A stretch of DNA of 63,891 nt, filler included, from an uncultured Methanoregulaceae archaeon (GTDB lineage: Archaea; Halobacteriota; Methanomicrobia; Methanomicrobiales; Methanospirillaceae), in NCBI GenBank assembly GCA_964530035.1. It is 8 parts of 8 records of this genome, joined end to end, with 100 filler letters (N's around TTAATTAATTAA, not from the genome) between each part and the next. Parts side by side here need not be neighbours in the genome. Positions count along the whole stretch, not along the records: positions 17,001 to 25,355 come from CAZGXZ010000116.1; 7 more parts are not named here. One strand, 5' to 3'. The first letter of the stretch is position 1. Each line of letters opens with the position of its first letter. Below the pieces are notes generated by a model that worked only from the letters and a program-made list of their open reading frames with translations, did no database searches and was not told the origin of the DNA. The translations under genes were made by a program, and so were the position numbers. Of the stretch, positions 8,415 through 63,362 are shown one piece after another.

Positions 8415-8514
8415 NNNNNNNNNNNNNNNNNNNNNNNNNNNNNNNNNNNNNNNNNNNNTTAATTAATTAANNNNNNNNNNNNNNNNNNNNNNNNNNNNNN
8501 NNNNNNNNNNNNNN
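8415..8514. other. artificial contig linker
   Basis: N44-TTAATTAATTAA-N44 (stops in all six frames). Confidence 0.99.
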
Positions 8515-17000: not shown

Positions 17001-17548
17001 CGTGTTCGCGCTGATGGCGCGGTGATCCGGGGCAGCGGGGATATCTGGCGGGTTGTCAAGGACCCGGGCGGCTGAGCTCCACCCGGTGGCCGGTCGAAAG
17101 GTCAGTTTTGGTTACATTCCGGAAACCCATGCAACAAGCCGGAACGTTGAGGCTGTGGAGGTACCCTCCCTGTCTGACGTTTGTGAGGAGGTGGGCATCT
17201 GCCGGGGGCTTCGCAGGGCTGGACGGTTCCGGAATCATCTGAAGGGGAGGGGGTGGCAGGTACCCCCCCTGGCCGGAGCAGGAGGTGCAGGGTTCTTTTC
17301 ACGTCCATCCCCGGCAGAAGCATGGCCGCCGCCAGTCGGGCAGGCTTTCCCGCTCTTTTCCTTCAGCCGCCTCCGGCCCGGCAGGGTAACGTCGGCAGGC
17401 ACATCTGTGGTGACGGGTGGGTGGGGTATTGGGATCAATCAGCGGCAACAGGGGGCAGGAACCGTGGGTTGGGACAGCGTACCTGGAGACTCTGACCATA
17501 AACACCTTCATTCCCGACTGCAAACCTCATCAGGAAGGTCAGATTTTT

Positions 17549-18643
17549 ATGACTCCTCCTTCGTCGGAATGCATACCAGTGCATCACTATACATTACAAC
17601 AGCTTGGGTGGACAGAAGAATACGCAGACGCTTTTTCAAAATACTCCGGGGCCTACCTGCCCGGCCGTGTTGCCTGCCGGCAGAAGACCGTCTGGGACGT
17701 GCTGACTGAAGAAGGGGCCGTTACAACGGGAATTTCCGGTGCGCTGAAAAAACTCGGCCGTTATCCTGCTGTAGGCGATTTTGTCGTGCTGCATAGCCCC
17801 CCGGGATCCAACGCCATGGTGATTGTGGATATCCTTGCCCGGAAGACATGGTTTACCAGGGGCAGTTCAGGACGTGAAGGAACCGACCAGGTCATCGCAG
17901 CGAACGCTGACATCGTGTTTATCGTCACGGCAGCCGGCCATGACCTGAATGCCCGCCGTGTCGAACGGTACCTCTCTATTGTTCACGCTTCCGGGGCACG
18001 ACCGGTAATCCTGATCAACAAGGCCGATCTCTCCGATGACCCGGACCGGTTGCGTGACGAGATCCTCCCGGTCTCTGCCGGGATTCCGGTCATCTCCCTG
18101 AGCGCGAAAAGCGGCGATGGGATCGGGCAGCTCGACCCGTATCTCGCTCCGGGCACAACGATCGTCCTTATCGGTTCTTCCGGGGTCGGCAAGTCGACCC
18201 TCATCAACCGGCTGCTCGAAAATCCCGTGCAGGACACATCAGGTACCCGGAATTATGACGGGAAAGGCCGGCATACGACGACCGTCCGGCAGCTCTTTAT
18301 CCTGAAGGGAGGGGCACTCATGATTGATAATCCCGGGCTCCGCGAGGTCGGTATCGGCACAGCATCCGGGGGCATTGCCGGAACATTCCCTGATATCCTT
18401 GCACTGGCCGGAAGGTGCAGGTTCTCCGACTGCAGGCACGACCAGGAGCCGGGCTGTGCCGTGAAGGAGGCTGTTGAGCGAGGGGAACTCTCTCAGGAAC
18501 GGATCGGGAACTACCACCGGCTGATGCTGGAACTCGCGTTCGAGCAGGACAAAGCAGAGATCGGCCTGGTCCGGTCTGAAAGAAAACGGTGGAAAGCCAT
18601 CAGCAAGCTCGGAAAAGAGATCCAGAAGGGAACAAGCGAATGA
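17549..18643 (+). CDS. rsgA: ribosome small subunit-dependent GTPase A
   Basis: circularly permuted GTPase: NKAD, GSSGVGKS, GRHTTT, DNPG; Zn motif CRFSDCRHDQEPGC. Confidence 0.93.
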   Translation: MTPPSSECIPVHHYTLQQLGWTEEYADAFSKYSGAYLPGRVACRQKTVWDVLTEEGAVTTGISGALKKLGRYPAVGDFVVLHSPPGSNAMVIVDILARKTWFTRGSSGREGTDQVIAANADIVFIVTAAGHDLNARRVERYLSIVHASGARPVILINKADLSDDPDRLRDEILPVSAGIPVISLSAKSGDGIGQLDPYLAPGTTIVLIGSSGVGKSTLINRLLENPVQDTSGTRNYDGKGRHTTTVRQLFILKGGALMIDNPGLREVGIGTASGGIAGTFPDILALAGRCRFSDCRHDQEPGCAVKEAVERGELSQERIGNYHRLMLELAFEQDKAEIGLVRSERKRWKAISKLGKEIQKGTSE

Positions 18644-18862
18644 CCGGGACCTCCATGATGAATAAAGGCAGCGGAGACGGCTGGAGCCGGGGCGGTGCTG
18701 GCCAGCGGGGTCTTGTCCCGCTCCTGCGAACCGGCCATCCAGCCGTTTCCCCTTCCCGGCCCATCACCGCGAGCCGGATCACCTCCTTCTCCTGCTGACA
18801 TTTTTGTCCCTAATCCCTTTTTGTATCCGTACGATCTTCGTTCGTAGTGGAAAGGTGAGAAA

Positions 18863-20020
18863 ATGCTGTACAGGAAGTTCCCACGGTGCGGTCACGGTCT
18901 CTCGATCCTCGGCTTCGGGTGCATGCGGCTGCCGCCCAGAGACGGTCAGCCGGCTGGAGGAGAGATCGATGAGCCGAAGGCAATTGATATGATCCGGACC
19001 GCCATTGACGCCGGGGTCAATTACATCGATACGGCCTACCCGTACCACAACGGGGAGAGCGAGGTGGTCGTCGGGAGGGCGCTTGGCGACGGCTACCGCG
19101 ACCGGGTATTCCTTGCCACCAAGCTCCCCAGCTGGCTCGTCACCAGCCGGGGAGACATGGACAGGTACCTGGACGAACAGCTCGCAAAACTCGGCACGGA
19201 CCACATTGATTTCTATCTCCTCCACGGGCTTGGCGCCGAAACGTGGGAGAACCTTTCCCGGCTGGGCGTCCTTGAATTCCTGGACAGTGCCCGGGAGGAC
19301 GGCCGGATCCGGCACCCGGCGTTCTCCTTCCATGACGAGTTTCCGGTCTTCCGGGAGATCGTCGATGCCTACGAGTGGACCTTTGCCCAGGTCCAGTACA
19401 ACTACATGGACGAGCAGTACCAGGCCGGCACGCAGGGGTTGAGGTACGCAGCGGAACGGGGCCTTGGCATCGTAGTCATGGAACCGCTCCGGGGCGGTCT
19501 CCTGTCCGGGGACGTCCAGGCGATCCACCAGCACCTCCTTGATGCCCCGGTCCGGCGCACGCCGTCGGAGTGGGGGCTCCGCTGGGTCTGGGACCACCCG
19601 GAGGTCACGGTCGTGCTCTCCGGCATGTCTTCGATGGAACAGGTCAGGGAAAACCTTTCCAGTGCAACGCAGGGCCTGCCGGGTTCTCTCTCCCCCGGTG
19701 AGCTTGCCGTCGTCGGGAAGATGCGGGACACGTTTGCCTCCCGGGTGAAGATCCCGTGCACCGGCTGCCGCTACTGCATGCCGTGCGAAAACGGCGTCGA
19801 CATCCCTGGTTGCTTCATGTATTACAACCAGGCGTATACCTTCGATGCAAAGGAGAAAGCGGAGGGCGTGTACCTCTGGGCCCTCAACGGTTCGTTTTCC
19901 GGGGGAATACCGGGGTACGCCTCCTGTTGTGTCCAGTGCGGAGAGTGCGAGGAAAAATGTCCGCAGAAGTTTCCCATACGGGAATATTTGCAGGACGTTG
20001 CAGGATTTTTCGGAAAATAA
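18863..20020 (+). CDS. aldo/keto reductase with C-terminal 4Fe-4S domain
   Basis: 'LGFGCMRLP', 'DTAYPYH.GESE', 'CTGCRYCMPC', 'CVQCGECEEKCP'. Confidence 0.93.
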   Translation: MLYRKFPRCGHGLSILGFGCMRLPPRDGQPAGGEIDEPKAIDMIRTAIDAGVNYIDTAYPYHNGESEVVVGRALGDGYRDRVFLATKLPSWLVTSRGDMDRYLDEQLAKLGTDHIDFYLLHGLGAETWENLSRLGVLEFLDSAREDGRIRHPAFSFHDEFPVFREIVDAYEWTFAQVQYNYMDEQYQAGTQGLRYAAERGLGIVVMEPLRGGLLSGDVQAIHQHLLDAPVRRTPSEWGLRWVWDHPEVTVVLSGMSSMEQVRENLSSATQGLPGSLSPGELAVVGKMRDTFASRVKIPCTGCRYCMPCENGVDIPGCFMYYNQAYTFDAKEKAEGVYLWALNGSFSGGIPGYASCCVQCGECEEKCPQKFPIREYLQDVAGFFGK

Positions 20021-20038
20021 AAAAGACGAGATACCACG

Positions 20039-20257
20039 ATGCCAGTAATTACGATTGATCTCAGGAAAGTTAGCCCTGAAACGAAAGCAGACCTGATCGA
20101 GAACCTGACGAAGACCGCGTCAGAGGTCACAAAACTGCCGCCGCAGGCATTTTTTGTGTGTGTCCGGGAGTACCCGCTTGATGCTATTGGTACGGGTGGA
20201 GTCCCGCTCTCGCAGCAGGTCCCAGGTACGGTGACTCCTCCCAGGCAGGAACCCTGA
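20039..20257 (+). CDS. 4-oxalocrotonate tautomerase family protein
   Basis: catalytic Pro1 'MPVITI', 'IGTGG', 72 aa. Confidence 0.9.
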   Translation: MPVITIDLRKVSPETKADLIENLTKTASEVTKLPPQAFFVCVREYPLDAIGTGGVPLSQQVPGTVTPPRQEP

Positions 20258-20526
20258 TCCCGATCTCACTGATCAGGGGCGAGGTGTGGAGTATTCCCCG
20301 CCTGCCTCATCTTCTCCGATGGTAGTGTCGGCCATGGCCCATCATCATCCTTGGGAAGATATCTGAAAAGCCAGGTGAACCGGAACCGTTGGTACCTGAA
20401 CCCGGATCCCTAACGGATTGGAAAATGCGGGTCCGGCATATCCGGCAGGCATTGCGACCGGTACCGGAAGGGGATTACATAGTTAGTATCACAGCCAGAA
20501 ATGCCCCGCAGCAGGCCAGGGCCACG

Positions 20527-21273
20527 TTAAAAAACATATCTCCACTCGTTTTTCTTCAGTTCCTCTTTTCTCTGTTTGTAATCAGGCATATGGGCCCGGA
20601 CCAGGTCCCAGAAAACCGGTGAATGGTCCTTGTGAACGATATGGCACAGTTCATGGAGGACGATGTAGTCGATGGTGTCCAGGGGGGCCATGAGCAGCCG
20701 GACATTGATTGAAACGGTGTTGTTCGGGGAACAACTCCCCCATTTGGACTTCTGGTTCCTGACAGAAAACGGGGGCGGTGAAACACCGAGCTGTCTGGCC
20801 CAGTACCCGATCCTTTCCCGTACCACTTCCCTCGCCCGGGCCAGGTACCAGGAGTACAGCTGGTCTTTGATCAGTTCTTCAAAAGGAGAGGAGATCCTGT
20901 CCTGCGGAAGAACAACAACGAGGTCCTGTTCCCGCATAAAGACGGCGGGATTCCGGCCCTCTTCCACGACGAGGCGGTACTCCCGGCCAAGGTAGAGAAG
21001 GGTTTCTCCGGTGACATACTCCTTTTTTGGCCTCGAAAGGATGCGTTCCTGCATCATCATGACTTTCTCGGAGATCCAGGAACGCTTTTCTTCCACAAAC
21101 CGCACGACATCACCCGTGGGAGTCCCCGCCGGGGCCCTGACATCGACAATCCCCGGGGGCCTGACCCGGATGGCAAGAGTCTTCCGGCCGGAGCTGGTGG
21201 TGATGGTATAGGGGATGGTGGCCGGGCCAACCACGAGAGACCGGTGGACAACGCCTTCTTTCTTGTGTTTCAT
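20527..21273 (-). CDS. M48/YgjP-like (DUF45) zinc metallopeptidase
   Basis: 'KWGSCS', 'DYIVLHELCH..HKDHSPVFW'. Confidence 0.92.
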   Translation of the reverse strand: MKHKKEGVVHRSLVVGPATIPYTITTSSGRKTLAIRVRPPGIVDVRAPAGTPTGDVVRFVEEKRSWISEKVMMMQERILSRPKKEYVTGETLLYLGREYRLVVEEGRNPAVFMREQDLVVVLPQDRISSPFEELIKDQLYSWYLARAREVVRERIGYWARQLGVSPPPFSVRNQKSKWGSCSPNNTVSINVRLLMAPLDTIDYIVLHELCHIVHKDHSPVFWDLVRAHMPDYKQRKEELKKNEWRYVF

Positions 21274-21514
21274 GCACTACTCCAGCTGATAGATGCTTCC
21301 GGGTGACCACCGGCGGTCTTCATGACCCGCGAAGATGGACCCGCACGCCTGTTCCTTTGCGGTTGGTCGTTTTCTCCCGGCCCTGGCCCCTGTGCCCGGG
21401 CGGTTCTACGAAGACGATGTGGGACATCCGCCCTATCGACCGTTGGGGATTTTGGATGTTTCCGCTCCAGGACCCGTGCTGAAGGGTGTCTGTTCCTGAT
21501 AGGAGTCCTGGTAT

Positions 21515-21701
21515 GGGTCGCATGGGTGGTGCCAGCCGGAGTATTCAATTCGAAACACAGGGCAATGAGGGTGCCGGTTTTATGGCAGGGATCCCTGTAT
21601 TTTAAGGACTACGCATTCCGGTCCGGCCGGGAGGACCCATAGGGAAGGTCGTGAACGGTATGCCGATCTTCCTCGCTGCGATTACCCCCCAGGTGGAATA
21701 G
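21515..21701. repeat. 187-bp direct repeat, copy 1
   Basis: aligns without gaps to 23358-23544 with 17 mismatches by hand count (about 91%). Confidence 0.95.
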
Positions 21702-22086
21702 GTACGGTTTTTTTTTAATTACCGCGTTTTTGTGACCGGACCATACATGTATCAGGGATAATTGTCGGCCTCGATCCATTGCCCGGGAGGTCTCCATGGG
21801 TCTCATCACCTGAATAACGGACATACATTTTTGGGGAGCAGGAAAGGGACGGTATTAAGACCGTGCGGGTTTGAGACAGGGGCATCTGGAACGGGAGCAA
21901 CGAGGGGGCGGCGAGGCCTTTTCGCCCCAGCCATCTGCCGAAGAAAACGGGTGATGTTAATCGACCATGCCCTGAGGTCCATCGTGCCCGGACCGGTCCG
22001 TTCAACTACTTTAAAATTTAAGTAAATAATAAAGTAACTATTCAAGGCAGGAAAACCCTCATGAACGAACCAGGGAGTGATACCGT

Positions 22087-22413
22087 ATGCAGGATGATAT
22101 CCTCTCCGTCCTGAACGGGTCTATAGGACTCAATGCAAAAATCTTCTCGCTCGTCCGGTTAAAACTGCTCGCAAGCCTTGTTTCCCTTGGACCGGATGGC
22201 GCAACCTATCGTGAGCTCAAAGCAGCCCTGAACATGAATGACGGGGTGTTGTTTGCCAATCTCAAGGTCCTGGAAGACATGGGGTATCTTACCTCCGGGA
22301 AAATCACTTCGGAAGAAAAAGAACTCGAACTCTATACGATAACCCCGGAAGGGCAGGACGAATGGGAGAGGACGCGGGCCTGGCTCTGCAGGTTTCTCAG
22401 GTGCGGGGTCTGA
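22087..22413 (+). CDS. winged-helix transcriptional regulator (ArsR/HTH_34-like)
   Basis: 'VRLKLLASL', 'TYRELK..LNMNDGVL..NLKVLEDMGYL', 'YTITPEG'. Confidence 0.85.
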   Translation: MQDDILSVLNGSIGLNAKIFSLVRLKLLASLVSLGPDGATYRELKAALNMNDGVLFANLKVLEDMGYLTSGKITSEEKELELYTITPEGQDEWERTRAWLCRFLRCGV

Positions 22414-22415
22414 TC

Positions 22416-22946
22416 ATGAAAAACCGGAAAAAGGTAATCGCCTTCTTCAGGGAACTCGGCTTTCATTTCACTATCTCGCAGTTTGACGACCGGCTGGTTG
22501 CCCAGAAGCTGGTCTGCCTCCTTGAACTGAAGGGCGTGGACCTTGGATACCCATGCGGCCTGTACGTGAGGGGTCCCTATTCCCCTGACCTTACGCGGGA
22601 CCTCTTTGCGTTCACCCGTGAGTTCGTGGACCTGGACACCACGTCAAAGCTGAGCCTAAAAGAAAAAGAGGTCGCTTCAGACCTCCGACGCATCTTCGGC
22701 CTCAGGCCGGCCCACCTCGAGATCGGGGCAACCTATGGCTATTATACCGTACGGCAGAACTGTGACCCGCTTGAAGCGCTCCGGCAGGTCAGGCGGCTGA
22801 AGCCGTTCTATTCTGAAGCCCTGGTCGCCCTTGGGATCTCCAAGGCCAAGCAGTTCCTCTTCAAGCCCACCCTGCAGGACCTCGATGACCTGAAAAAGGA
22901 AACCGGTATCTGGCAGAGGGCATCACTCAGGTCACTGGACCGATAA
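22416..22946 (+). CDS. Panacea/SocA (YwgA-like) putative antitoxin
   Basis: 'RLVAQKLVCLL...GY...YVRGPYSPDL' motif; lies directly upstream of MazF. Confidence 0.7.
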   Translation: MKNRKKVIAFFRELGFHFTISQFDDRLVAQKLVCLLELKGVDLGYPCGLYVRGPYSPDLTRDLFAFTREFVDLDTTSKLSLKEKEVASDLRRIFGLRPAHLEIGATYGYYTVRQNCDPLEALRQVRRLKPFYSEALVALGISKAKQFLFKPTLQDLDDLKKETGIWQRASLRSLDR

Positions 22947-22949
22947 CTG

Positions 22950-23276
22950 ATGAGAAAAGGCGACATCTGGTTAGTAGACCTCTCCGATGCTAAAGGGCAT
23001 GAGCAGCGGGGAGTACGGCCGGCGGTCATCGTCGGCGGTGCAAACGGGCTCGTCCTCGTTGTCCCGCTGACCAGCAGGATGGCCAGCGCCAGGTTCTCTC
23101 ATACTCACATAATCTCTCCCGATACGCTCAATGGCCTCGATACTGACAGTGTTGCCCTTGTATTCCAGATCGTCGCCCTGGACCGGGAGAGGTTCTCCCA
23201 CCGCATCGGGACCGTCGGTGAACAGCACCGTCTCGCGATCACTGCCCTTATCCGGGACCTGATGGACCTCGGTTAA
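22950..23276 (+). CDS. mazF: PemK/MazF family mRNA interferase toxin
   Basis: 'KGDIWLVDL....GHEQRGVRPAVIV', 'VVPLTS', 'SVALVFQIVALDRER'. Confidence 0.92.
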   Translation: MRKGDIWLVDLSDAKGHEQRGVRPAVIVGGANGLVLVVPLTSRMASARFSHTHIISPDTLNGLDTDSVALVFQIVALDRERFSHRIGTVGEQHRLAITALIRDLMDLG

Positions 23277-23357
23277 GGGGAGGACAAAGGAAAAGAGCGG
23301 AAACCCATACCAGGAGCTGCACCTGGGGCCACGTAATCAGAGGGTAGATTTCATCGC

Positions 23358-23544
23358 GGGTCGCATGGGGGGTGCCAGCCGGAGTATTCAATTCGAAACA
23401 CAGGGCAATGAGGGTGCCGGTGTTACGGCAGGGATCCCGGTATTTTAAGGACTACGCATTCCGGTCCGGTCGGGAGGACTCATAGGGAAAGACGTGAACA
23501 GTATGCCGATCTTTCCCCCTGTGATTTGCCACCAGGTTGAATAG
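23358..23544. repeat. 187-bp direct repeat, copy 2
   Basis: matches 21515-21701 at offset 1843. Confidence 0.95.
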
Positions 23545-23557
23545 CGACAACTGGTGG
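23529..23557. terminator. hairpin immediately after the minus-strand mazF stop
   Basis: CCACCAG(G)TTG...CAACTGGTGG inverted repeat between two convergent toxin genes. Confidence 0.45.
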
Positions 23558-23559
23558 TT

Positions 23560-23892
23560 CTATGACGTGATTATCTGAATGATGGAATTCGTCACCTTGT
23601 CCAGGGTTGACGGCACCAGGTGTGCAACCGACTTTTCCACCATCTGTGAATCGCCGGTGAAAAGTTTGTCTGGCCGTGCAAAACTGAGCATTTTTAATCC
23701 ACCTGTTTCATAGTCCGCATGATCCAGGGGGATTGAATAGGTGCGATCATAGGGTTGACTGGTTATCTGGCAGAGAATGAGATCATCGCCCGGAAGATGT
23801 GCAACAACAAGCGCCGGACGCTTTTTACTGCCAGATAAATCAGAAAAAGGAAACGGGACCACGACAATGTCGCCTTTTATAAATAGCTCCAG
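23560..23892 (-). CDS. mazF: PemK/MazF family toxin, probable CTG start
   Basis: '(L)ELFIKGDIVVVPFPFSDLSGSKKRPALVV', 'LILCQITS', 'SFARPDKLFT'. Confidence 0.88.
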   Translation of the reverse strand: MELFIKGDIVVVPFPFSDLSGSKKRPALVVAHLPGDDLILCQITSQPYDRTYSIPLDHADYETGGLKMLSFARPDKLFTGDSQMVEKSVAHLVPSTLDKVTNSIIQIITS

Positions 23893-24521
23893 GCTTCGTC
23901 CTCCTCCGGCCTGAGCCAGTCTTTTGAAAGGGCCCGTTCACTTATGAGAGCCGTGTCAGGGAATGCATGGATACTTTGGACCGGGTCCCCGCTTCCTGTT
24001 TCATATTCGCATGGAGTTTCGCCTGTCATTGCCTGTTCCGGTTGTACACCGGTCAGTTCTTCCTCCCTGAGTTTAAACAGGTCGGGAGGGATCCTGTACC
24101 CGTGCCCCACATTTTTCCAGAGGTCATATTGATGGGTAATGGTGCTTATGGCGACTGCCGTATTCGTTTTCAGGAGGTCGATCACTTTATTGAATATCAT
24201 TTTTTCCTCGTCATCGAACACCTCCCGGTCACATTTCTGCAGGGGGGTGAACCGGAATTCGTTAAACCCGGCTCCCTGGTAATCGACCTGGACGTGTCGG
24301 ACTTTTAGAAATTCATTCGAGCAGGAAGTGAGTGCGAATGCATACGGTGGCACAGGTCCGTACGGCATTCGTACATATTCATCTTCAAGAAGGGTGGTCC
24401 CTCTCCGGTTGAAAACCACCAGGTCGACAAAGAAAATGAACTTCATCAGTTTCGTCCTTCCGATATCGGGATATTCCTCTATTGCGTACAGGATTGCATT
24501 CACCTGTTTCTTCATCTTCAT
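23877..24521 (-). CDS. Panacea (SocA/DUF4065) antitoxin with C-terminal MazF-partner-like tail
   Basis: 'TKLMKFIFFVD...Y.RMPYGPVP' Panacea motif; tail 'SERALSKDWLRPEEDEAWSYL' overlaps the toxin start. Confidence 0.85.
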   Translation of the reverse strand: MKMKKQVNAILYAIEEYPDIGRTKLMKFIFFVDLVVFNRRGTTLLEDEYVRMPYGPVPPYAFALTSCSNEFLKVRHVQVDYQGAGFNEFRFTPLQKCDREVFDDEEKMIFNKVIDLLKTNTAVAISTITHQYDLWKNVGHGYRIPPDLFKLREEELTGVQPEQAMTGETPCEYETGSGDPVQSIHAFPDTALISERALSKDWLRPEEDEAWSYL

Positions 24522-25355
24522 ACCTGACCCCGACTCCTCCCAACGAGAATACCTGAGAATGAACCTGCGAGTGTATCTGCGATTATATATGGTGTAATTT
24601 TATAAATGCACGGTAGATGGTGTGAACGTATCACAAGGTCCTTTGCCATTATAACCGCCATTCCCCCGGAAAACGCCTTCCCAAGCAGTGAAGAAAACAG
24701 CCAGGTGATTTCTTCATCAGGTTTACCACAGGATTTCAGGGAAGGATTTCCCGGAAGAATTTTGCAGAGGGCTGTTGCTGAGGGCTTCCATATGCCCGAT
24801 GATTCCGGTGTATTCCTGCCGAAGGGGCGATGGAAGACGCCATTTCCCATTTCTTCCTCAACCAGAACAGGTGCCGGTTCAGACAGGGACTTGGGCAGAG
24901 GGGCCCGGGGCGGACGGCTCCGGGGGGTACTCCCGGTCACCAGGCGTCCTCCATTCCTCCAGGGGAAAAACCCTGTCCCCAGGCAGAAAATGGAGGACAG
25001 GGATCTGCCTCTGCGGGCCCTGATCCGCAAAATACCGGTACTAAGAACCACTTAGATCAGAGAGATCCCCTGTCCTCCGGCAAAAGTGAGATCACAGAGC
25101 AGGGGGTGAGACAGGCCCCCTGTACTCCACCCTGTGTATGTGATCCCGGGACGGCTGGAGGACAGGACACGAAAACCGATCTACCGTCCCTGATGGCGGA
25201 TCAAACAACGGAAACTGCCCCAAACACCCTCCATCAGCCATGTCTCCCGACTTCGGGACACCTGGCGGAGTCCATCCTGAATGCAAGGGGTGAGCCTCGT
25301 TCAGGGAACCAGGGCACGGGAGCCGGAAATGGTCTGCTCCATGCACCATCCGTGC

Positions 25356-61306: not shown

Positions 61307-61730
61307 TTGCTATCTTATTCCACCCCCACTATCCTGCCAACCCGGTCGTTTTAAAGGACTAAATCACCGGGACGTCAGTCTCCTGCGGTTGAGCTTTCGT
61401 ATCGCAGATGAGCGTACATCCCCTGAATGTCGCCCGGGGCGGCAGGCTTCCTCCCCCTTCGTCTGCCACTCTGTGAAACCGTGAAAACCTGACCAAGGGA
61501 CCTGTGAAGTCCATGCACACGTATCGCAGTTTTTTTCCCAGTCCCCGTGAGAACGACATCCGGGTGGTTCAACCTGTATTTCTCCAGGGGAACGGGTACT
61601 CCTGGCAGTTCATACCAGGGAGATTCCCAGGGATTCCCACGCGGCCCTTATATCTTCACATCGGCCTGAAAACAGGGTCGCGGGACAGGGATTGCATTAA
61701 ACTGCCCTTGGGTTCCCTGTCCTCCCGGTT

Positions 61731-61862
61731 CCGGACATCATCACCCCGATAAGCACCAGGATGGCATACGTCCCGGTGAACTGAGGAACGGTGAACAGGG
61801 ATGCCCCGGGGAGGATGGCGAAGACGAGGATGATAGAGGCCTGTACGAGGCTACGGACCGTG
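61731..61862 (-). pseudogene. degenerate 132-bp duplicate of an ABC-2 permease segment
   Basis: collinear with 62926-63057; TVRSLVQASIILVFA versus TVRGLVQASIILVFA. Confidence 0.85.
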
Positions 61863-61927
61863 TTATTGAGGACCTCCTTCATGGGGCGTTCACGCTCTCC
61901 GTGAGGTCCGGGTGGGTTTTTCCCGGG

Positions 61928-62636: not shown

Positions 62637-63362
62637 CTAGATCTTCACCCGCCTGAACCGGTGTACGCTGACCCCGAGGACAACGACGCAGAGGATGGCG
62701 AGCCCGGCGAGCTTGTCCCAGGCGATGACGCCCACCTGGAGGAGCCTGATCGCATCGATGGCAAAGCTCAGCGGGTTGATCATGGCCGGTACCTTCAGCC
62801 ATTCAGGCATGAGGGCATAGGGCATGAGCGCACTGGACGTGAAGAAGATCGGCAGGCTGATCATTGCCGTGACCGCCGCGTACCCGTCGTGGTCCATGAC
62901 ATGGAGGGCGATGGTCGTCCCGAACCCGGACATCATCACGCCGAAGAGCACCAGGATGGCGTACGTCCCGGCCAGCTGGGGCAGGGTGTAGAGGGACGCC
63001 CCGAGGAAAAAGGCGAAGACGAGGATGATGGATGCCTGTACGAGGCCACGGACCGTGATGAAGAGGATCTTGCCGAAGAGGATGCTCTCCCGCGACGAGG
63101 GCATGGCCAGGAACTTGTTCAGGAACCCGAGCATGCGGTCGAATATGAGGAGCGCCCCGCCCTGGAGGGACCCGTTTAAGATGCTCATGGCGAGGATCCC
63201 GGGCGTGATGAAATCGATGTAGTTGTCAGTGAACCGGATCGGCATGGCCAGCCCGACGAACACGAGCTACGCCGCCGGCATCACGAGGGCCGAGACCACC
63301 CCGACCCTCCCGCGGGTCCACTTGATGAAGTCGCGCCTGAAGTAGGCGAACACGGCGTCCAT
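62637..63362 (-). pseudogene. ABC-2 type permease with in-frame TAG at codon 32
   Basis: MDAVFAYFRRDFIKWTRGRVGVVSALVMPAA*LVFVG; TAG at 63267-63269; 'INPLSFAIDAIR'. Confidence 0.8.

Follow-up and report, generated by a model that had tools for sequence, protein, structure and literature searches.

Long direct repeats around a MazF operon in an uncultured methanogenic archaeon as a possible footprint of toxin-antitoxin insertion

A three-gene operon between two direct repeats

The DNA analyzed here, referred to as the window, is a stretch of 63,891 nucleotides from the genome of an uncultured Methanoregulaceae archaeon (GCA_964530035.1, hereafter G000; 2.36 Mb in 229 contigs, 86% complete). The window consists of eight contigs joined by spacers of N, and an apparent "111-nt repeat family" (D1; positions 8415 to 8514 and six more) is this artificial spacer between contigs. 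Contig C116 (window positions 17001 to 25355) carries a predicted toxin-antitoxin (TA) operon bracketed by two direct repeats, copy 1 at 21515 to 21701 and copy 2 at 23358 to 23544, the origin of which is the subject of this analysis. A preliminary description of the locus had reported two gap-free copies of 187 bp, spaced 1843 bp apart and differing by 17 mismatches, 4 of them within the first 112 bp, as well as enclosed genes on the plus strand between neighbors that both lie on the minus strand; all of this was confirmed. The insert between the repeats is 1656 bp long, and the mismatches are unevenly split along the repeat (4/112 versus 13/75; Fisher P = 0.003, uncorrected for the choice of split).

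The enclosed operon comprises, on the plus strand, a winged-helix regulator of the HTH_34 family (22087 to 22413; PF13601, E = 1e-18), a 176-aa protein of an unnamed archaeal family (22416 to 22946), and a MazF/PemK toxin (22950 to 23276; PF02452, E = 2e-21). An AT-rich palindromic promoter or operator precedes them at 22006 to 22045 (plus strand); its conservation is apparent when 39 upstream regions are aligned. A sigma-70 scan was uninformative, the host being an archaeon. The middle gene had been labeled an antitoxin. It is a candidate antitoxin by position, and the label finds no counterpart in family searches: the 176-aa protein has no match in Pfam, NCBIfam, PADLOC, or PDB, and in the Atlas it falls with unnamed clusters at 0.96 to 0.98, the nearest named family being PF13274 at 0.82. 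It may be an undescribed MazF antitoxin. A profile alignment (hhalign) with the Panacea protein of the window was not significant, and a Panacea-like nature can serve only as a lead.

The operon sits at different places in related genomes. Of the 401 genomes searched within the order, 100, G000 included, carry the gene for the 176-aa protein, and the repeat of the window never accompanies it in the loci examined in relatives. In the 29 best loci, homology to the window spans only 21985 to 23277, the flanks differ, and the repeat is absent; the homology starts at about 21985 to 22009, and no conserved downstream end of the operon was found across 40 related loci. Three mobility-gene queries, applied to 40 operon loci spanning at most 20 kb each, matched neither a tyrosine recombinase nor IS66. 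In four genomes (L176, L178, L179, and L184), the 3' fragment of a ferredoxin-like gene follows the operon; a copy matching this fragment is located upstream, no more than 1.1 kb away in two cases and at 1.6 kb in a third (L211), which suggests a shared or carried-along flank. The G000 assembly holds no second copy of the operon. A 970-nt contig from sequencing run X6, absent from that assembly, carries a diverged second copy of the regulator and middle genes (corresponding to window positions 22129 to 22613) at a depth of 28.7, compared with 30.6 for the organism, and relatives of this contig are abundant in runs X15 and X17.

Only two full-length copies of the repeat occur in the G000 assembly, 1.8 kb apart, and a search of the genomes of 60 relatives returned no real match, only one 29-nt match at chance level. 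In run X6, depth is flat across the locus (32.6, 30.6, and 32.8), and the unitig common to both copies has a depth of 70, that is, twice the single-copy depth. In run X14, the shared unitig at 23371 to 23421 has a depth of 21.5 compared with 5 to 7 on its flanks, above the 2-fold expectation; noise at low depth or an additional copy in the sample may account for this excess. The contigs of runs X6, X14, X15, and X17 contained no joint of the kind expected of an empty allele or an excised circle; X15 and X17 cover the locus patchily, and contigs show presence rather than absence and drop rare variants. The surrounding gene island was not found in the related genomes G001 (77% complete), G002, or G020.

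Composition of the repeat

The left part of the repeat corresponds to the start of a restriction-modification (R-M) gene. Positions 21274 to 21523 on the minus strand hold a remnant of a type I hsdM gene, its decayed 5' end, which matches 23 of 29 hsdM loci (best E = 1.4e-24); the relative used as the query is itself a type I methyltransferase (E = 1.8e-52). Because the ATG lies at repeat positions 7 to 9, the first part of the repeat consists of the start and leader of hsdM. Deletion has reduced the type I R-M operon to this 5' fragment, which directly abuts a gene for a YgjP-like metallopeptidase (20527 to 21273, minus strand; PF01863, E = 3e-60). A putative promoter-like motif on the minus strand, 41 nt before the ATG (21565 to 21580, and 23408 to 23423 in copy 2), is identical by eye at 15 of 16 positions to the hsdM leader of locus L261, at the same distance; the inner stem described earlier overlaps this motif. 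A hidden Markov model (HMM) of 19 hsdM leaders detected neither the repeat nor the motif.

On the far side of copy 2 lie two further resident genes on the minus strand, a second PemK/MazF gene (23560 to 23862; PF02452, E = 3e-8) and a Panacea/SocA antitoxin gene (23877 to 24521; PF13274, E = 2e-14). In a relative, G014 (loci L259 and L318), Panacea, MazF, and hsdM are collinear and point in the same direction, without the three-gene operon. Taking the operon and a single repeat copy out of the window thus restores an arrangement seen elsewhere, and we infer that the resident order before insertion was Panacea-MazF-hsdM.

The last 54 bp or so are, judging by sequence, likely the decayed right end of the genome's own IS66 element, comprising the last transposase codons and the terminal inverted repeat. 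These remnants lie on the plus strand at 21652 to 21705 in copy 1 and 23495 to 23548 in copy 2, the similarity reaching 21705 and 23548, respectively. Alignment of both copies to the IS66 right end gives a score of 56, reached by none of 2000 shuffles (maximum, 35), and the next-best tile of the genome scores 34; with one gap, 41 and 42 of 54 positions are identical, or 45/54 taking either copy. The gap falls in both copies at about the place where the fourth IS66 copy also lacks one base. The reference for this comparison comes from contig ends. The last 50 nt of the repeat match the starts of three other G000 contigs, which are identical over 50 to 55 nt and divergent beyond, and three more contig ends have another 54- to 55-mer in common, with the same 12-bp terminus. 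The flanks of C44/C12 and of C121/C217 form 8-bp duplications, and IS66 elements of relatives are bounded by the same terminus and by 8-bp duplications. The 55-mer encodes exactly the last 12 residues of an IS66 transposase (P0038); IS66 homologues are annotated from Methanolinea and Methanoregula. The right end is present at 3 to 4 times single-copy depth in four runs, and a further IS66 copy differs at 4 letters and lacks the base at place 40.

An unassembled IS66 of the ISBst12 group is thus apparent in about four copies (contig ends C121, C44, C157, C108, C12, and C217), with a transposase that falls in the P0038 cluster; a 5' fragment lies on C221 (75 to 455), and a decayed left end lies on C5 near position 214. 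Apart from the C221 fragment, the IS66 interior is absent from the assembly, and two metagenome pattern scans for it found nothing. At 80%, no IS66 could be placed on the repeat. The two copies differ in what follows them: the 8-mer that follows copy 1 is of the AT-rich kind preferred as a target in 110 IS66 flanks, ranking in the top 1.5% of genome 8-mers, whereas the 8-mer after copy 2 is not IS66-like, with a score reached by 29% of 8-mers. The last 54 bp of the repeat resemble the right end of the genome's single-ORF (open reading frame) IS66 of the ISBst12 group (PMC12898284), with its terminal repeat starting with GTAA and its 8-bp target duplication; unlike a complete member, the repeat has the decayed right end only, with no left end or transposase and no 8-bp target duplication around either copy. 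A separate observation concerns locus L030, where an 82-bp element (1734 to 1815) lies between two IS66 terminal repeats beside a full IS66 and is probably an IS66-derived miniature inverted-repeat transposable element (MITE).

The composition of the repeat and its two-copy status are thereby established, and the repeat is ordinary rather than a new recombination site. The preliminary description had proposed otherwise: an integron-cassette (attC-like) site, a MITE-like unit, structured RNA, or some new recombination site through which TA modules are gained or excised. We regard this family of readings as very improbable and as largely refuted already. An attC site carries the cores R'' (RYYYAAC) and R' (GTTRRRY), both expected on the same strand. 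Copy 1 has neither core, and copy 2 has a single 7-mer without a partner, usable as R' on the plus strand or as R'' on the minus strand. The reported arms (23385, 23396, 23517, and 23537) and the inner stem are present, and in copy 2 the outer arms do pair (DNA probability, 0.89), so that copy 2, cut at its arms, gives an end-to-end DNA hairpin (z = -1.6 and -2.1); copy 1 does not fold in this way (0.05 to 0.07), and the same test finds terminal inverted repeats of 7 bp in 1169 of the 11714 tiles of the genome. The span from arm to arm is about 159 nt (23385 to 23543), beyond the range of 57 to 141 bp given for attC sites (PMC5371416). Three matches to the tyrosine recombinase family PF00589 occur in G000; the two stronger ones, which were scanned, reach 87 and 42 bits on TIGR02249, far under its cutoff of 265, so that there is no IntI among these two, and no cluster of further sites was found in this 86% complete genome. 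Archaeal integrons, with attC sites and TA cassettes, do exist, mostly within one clade (10.1101/2022.02.06.479319). The locus resembles such cassettes in that an inverted TA unit, with a promoter of its own, lies between two related sequences, one of which can form a hairpin; it differs in the missing core pair, the structure limited to one copy, the length, and the lack of an array or IntI.

The remaining variants of that proposal fare no better. As a structured RNA, the repeat has no Rfam match up to E = 5 and no homologue among the 60 relatives, and whole-repeat RNA folding (z = 0.07 and 0.94) is no more structured than chance. An IS66-derived MITE was rejected because there is no left-end match: the left end scores 14, below the shuffle mean, and only the right end matches (56). 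Two copies 1.8 kb apart, moreover, are not the many unrelated sites of a MITE. The hsdM leader and the IS66 end account for the sequence that these readings sought to explain. What stands of the earlier proposal is that the repeats mark the gain of a TA unit; its loss is possible through ordinary homologous recombination, with no dedicated site.

Direct-repeat brackets at toxin-antitoxin loci of related methanogens

With two copies, no covariation, and no excised allele found, the repeat largely answers to what the preliminary description would have called a one-off local duplication. The architecture, however, recurs: unrelated repeats are arranged in the same way around other TA loci of relatives. 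Direct repeats bracketed 9 of 29 operon loci and inverted repeats 0 of 29, compared with 3/150 and 2/150 random G000 windows. When larger loci were used, 33 of 40 remained after removal of 7 with short flanks; of these, 11/33 were bracketed, versus 51/1349 neighboring windows. The same analysis was applied to loci of the HicA toxin, of the second MazF (MazF2), and of YgjP, of which 22/30, 13/17, and 24/29, respectively, had full flanks. Under the symmetric bracket rule, HicA gave 1/22, MazF2 0/13, and YgjP 0/24; under a looser rule, which accepts a repeat copy on each side of the gene, the counts were 8/22, 3/13, and 0/24, and control windows recomputed for this geometry gave 90/1496 (neighboring) and 42/2066 (G000). 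Repeats of at least 100 nt were found at 14 of 68 TA loci (operon, 5, counted from 1.1-kb flanks; HicA, 7; MazF2, 2) versus 0 of 24 YgjP loci (Fisher P = 0.017), with 38/1496 neighboring and 21/2066 G000 control windows. TA loci in related methanogens are, accordingly, enriched for locus-specific brackets, at about one locus in five. Specificity of the bracketing for the three-gene operon was considered and rejected, since HicA and MazF2 loci show the same.

The bracket sequences are as diverse as their loci. Among 34 of them, two pairs are alike, none resembles the repeat of the window, and no IS66 sequence was found in those at other TA loci. Many consist of the 3' end of a host gene, or of a 5' end with its promoter, as named from translations, and many are 90 to 98% identical and free of gaps. 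Two brackets checked in sister species are single-copy there, in 17/17 and 24/24 loci.

Origin of the footprint and its relation to known systems

We give roughly even chances to the following account: what is present twice is ordinary local DNA (start and leader of hsdM, together with the likely IS66 end), and the two copies were left when the TA operon entered by a single crossover with a target copy of its own. The target would have been the resident Panacea-MazF-hsdM defense island. Incoming DNA, presumably from a circular donor, would have carried the operon and a slightly diverged copy of the target, and a single homologous crossover at the target would yield the two flanking repeats. 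The catalyst may have been host recombination of the RadA type, the operon having no recombinase of its own, and toxin addiction could retain insertions that are otherwise prone to pop out. The native IS66 junction lies inside the insert, after copy 1, which suggests that the incoming DNA brought its own copy. The uneven divergence fits a conserved leader joined to a neutral remnant, or later conversion.

Several observations weigh against this account. No same-species strain with a single-repeat allele of the locus was seen, and G014, which shows the collinear order, has a similarity of only about 65% and does not contain the repeat. Over eight coding brackets, a tally by hand gave 49 synonymous and 37 nonsynonymous differences; this rejects the value assumed for two selected orthologues (0.78; P = 1e-5) and is compatible with duplication followed by decay under a transition bias (0.5; P = 0.24). 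Under these assumed rates the tally speaks against an origin from the donor alone, although it does not separate a donor copy from duplication with decay. The IS66 right ends of relatives (64 and 22), compared pairwise and by HMM, gave no significant match to either copy, so that the link to IS66 depends on 55 nt of the genome's own element, and repeat positions of about 70 to 137 are explained by neither hsdM nor IS66. The survey of relatives is affected as well: the looser bracket rule was adopted after the output had been seen, the symmetric rule having given 1/22 for HicA and 0/13 for MazF2; not all brackets are insertion scars, some being paralogous genes or, probably, repeats with many copies (a second hicAB is present in L220, and L218, L193, L283, and L286 are doubtful); and the loci are best-scoring hits from relatives that are not independent, so that the bracket rates are rough.

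Among the alternatives, copying of the target is unlikely, if the least so. Here, the 187 bp would have been copied from the chromosome during insertion, by break repair or template switching, identical at birth and since drifted by 9%. Such copying is how the footprint is read by Furuta, Abe and Kobayashi (2010; PMC2853133), with double-strand breaks suspected; the synonymous fraction of the coding brackets is compatible with decay after duplication, and the high, gap-free identity of many brackets would follow as well. On this reading, however, it would have to be a coincidence that the insert starts with an almost intact IS66 terminus and a target of the IS66 type, and the differences between the copies would not be expected to fall as unevenly as they do. 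Tandem duplication of a unit of repeat and operon, with later deletion of most of the second unit so that copy 2 was left, appears less probable still. It would explain both the native-looking IS66 junction of copy 1 and the poorer end and flank of copy 2, in an island that is decaying and has lost its hsdM operon, and amplification of repeat-flanked addiction modules has been described (PMC2853133); yet it needs two further events, no trace of a second operon remains in G000, and the Panacea-MazF-hsdM order of G014 is collinear without the operon. We consider it quite improbable that an active IS66 transposase acted in trans in a one-ended transposition, joining the remnant right end and about 140 bp of neighboring DNA to the AT-rich region upstream of the operon and so producing the second copy. 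The repeat ends at, or at most 4 nt from, the IS66 terminus, the organism has about four IS66 copies, and the flank of copy 1 fits the target preference; against this, the terminus is degenerate in both copies, a left end and an 8-bp duplication are missing, and the brackets at other TA loci are free of IS66 sequence.

Whether by crossover with a carried target copy or by copying, the locus matches a footprint of insertion that is known from restriction genes of bacteria, here with TA cargo. Insertions with long target duplication were defined by a direct repeat of >30 bp, an insert of <20 kb, and no mobility gene (PMC2853133). The repeats of 187 bp and the insert of 1656 bp have the corresponding sizes; no mobility gene lies in the insert or its neighbors, the IS66 end remnant being part of the repeat; and the repeat is not dispersed in multiple copies, only its last 50 nt matching the three IS66 contig ends. 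Three of the four features are thus found; for the fourth, an empty site, the observations are the distant collinear analogue in G014 and the single-copy state of two other TA-locus brackets in sister species. The likeness to the R-M cases extends to a small addiction-type module without a mobility gene, to long, imperfect, locus-specific direct repeats of variable length, and to enrichment of the module class. Unlike those cases, the cargo is a type II TA operon with no DNA-cutting enzyme, the host is a methanogenic archaeon, and no same-species empty site was seen; according to that study, its screen left no archaeal R-M case (PMC2853133).

Two other systems offer partial parallels. Unconventional circularizable structures (PMC7843796) likewise have no recombinase, and their long direct repeats would permit a circle with one repeat. 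They concern bacterial resistance genes, with circles detected by PCR (polymerase chain reaction), whereas here no circle was seen in the contigs of four runs and the repeats are shorter and 9% diverged. The TA-only chromosomal islets of Photorhabdus are small and without mobility genes, and one ParE/RelE system there has on its flanks two copies of a 24-bp site that occurs once in a relative (PMC13617665). That site resembles a Tn3 res site, unlike the 100 to 270 bp of arbitrary local sequence in the present brackets. According to the same source, TA systems do not stabilize their neighborhood over long times, and the entry of TA-only islets into chromosomes is still called unclear (PMC13617665). 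In the open-access literature, we found no report of this footprint at archaeal TA loci; PMC2654758 only cites the original paper.

The interest of the footprint lies in its frequency, TA modules in these archaea carrying it far more often than neighboring DNA does. For R-M genes, breaks made by the enzyme itself are the suspected cause (PMC2853133). RNase-toxin modules cannot make such breaks, and their footprints would therefore point to host recombination combined with addiction. A broader proposal, which we put forward with considerable doubt, is that, in this family of methanogens, several unrelated kinds of type II TA module routinely move without a recombinase, as small circles that have captured an arm of 100 to 270 bp at an earlier site, enter by host recombination at the corresponding gene end or promoter, and are kept because addiction penalizes pop-out. 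If so, the virus-like cycle proposed for R-M systems would extend to archaea and to cargo without a DNA-cutting enzyme, and many natural loci would be at hand for testing the mechanism of long target duplication.

Other repeats of the G000 genome are of different kinds. Additional two-copy repeats occur at window positions 61719 to 61875 and 62914 to 63070, at C129:3160-4721, and at C67:7802-9499; these resemble segments of paralogous genes in tandem more than scars left by insertion. Finally, 55 contig ends belong to a large family of multipart, partly GC-rich palindromic repeats (for example, C114_R, C139, C3, and C6), and this family breaks many of the G000 contigs.

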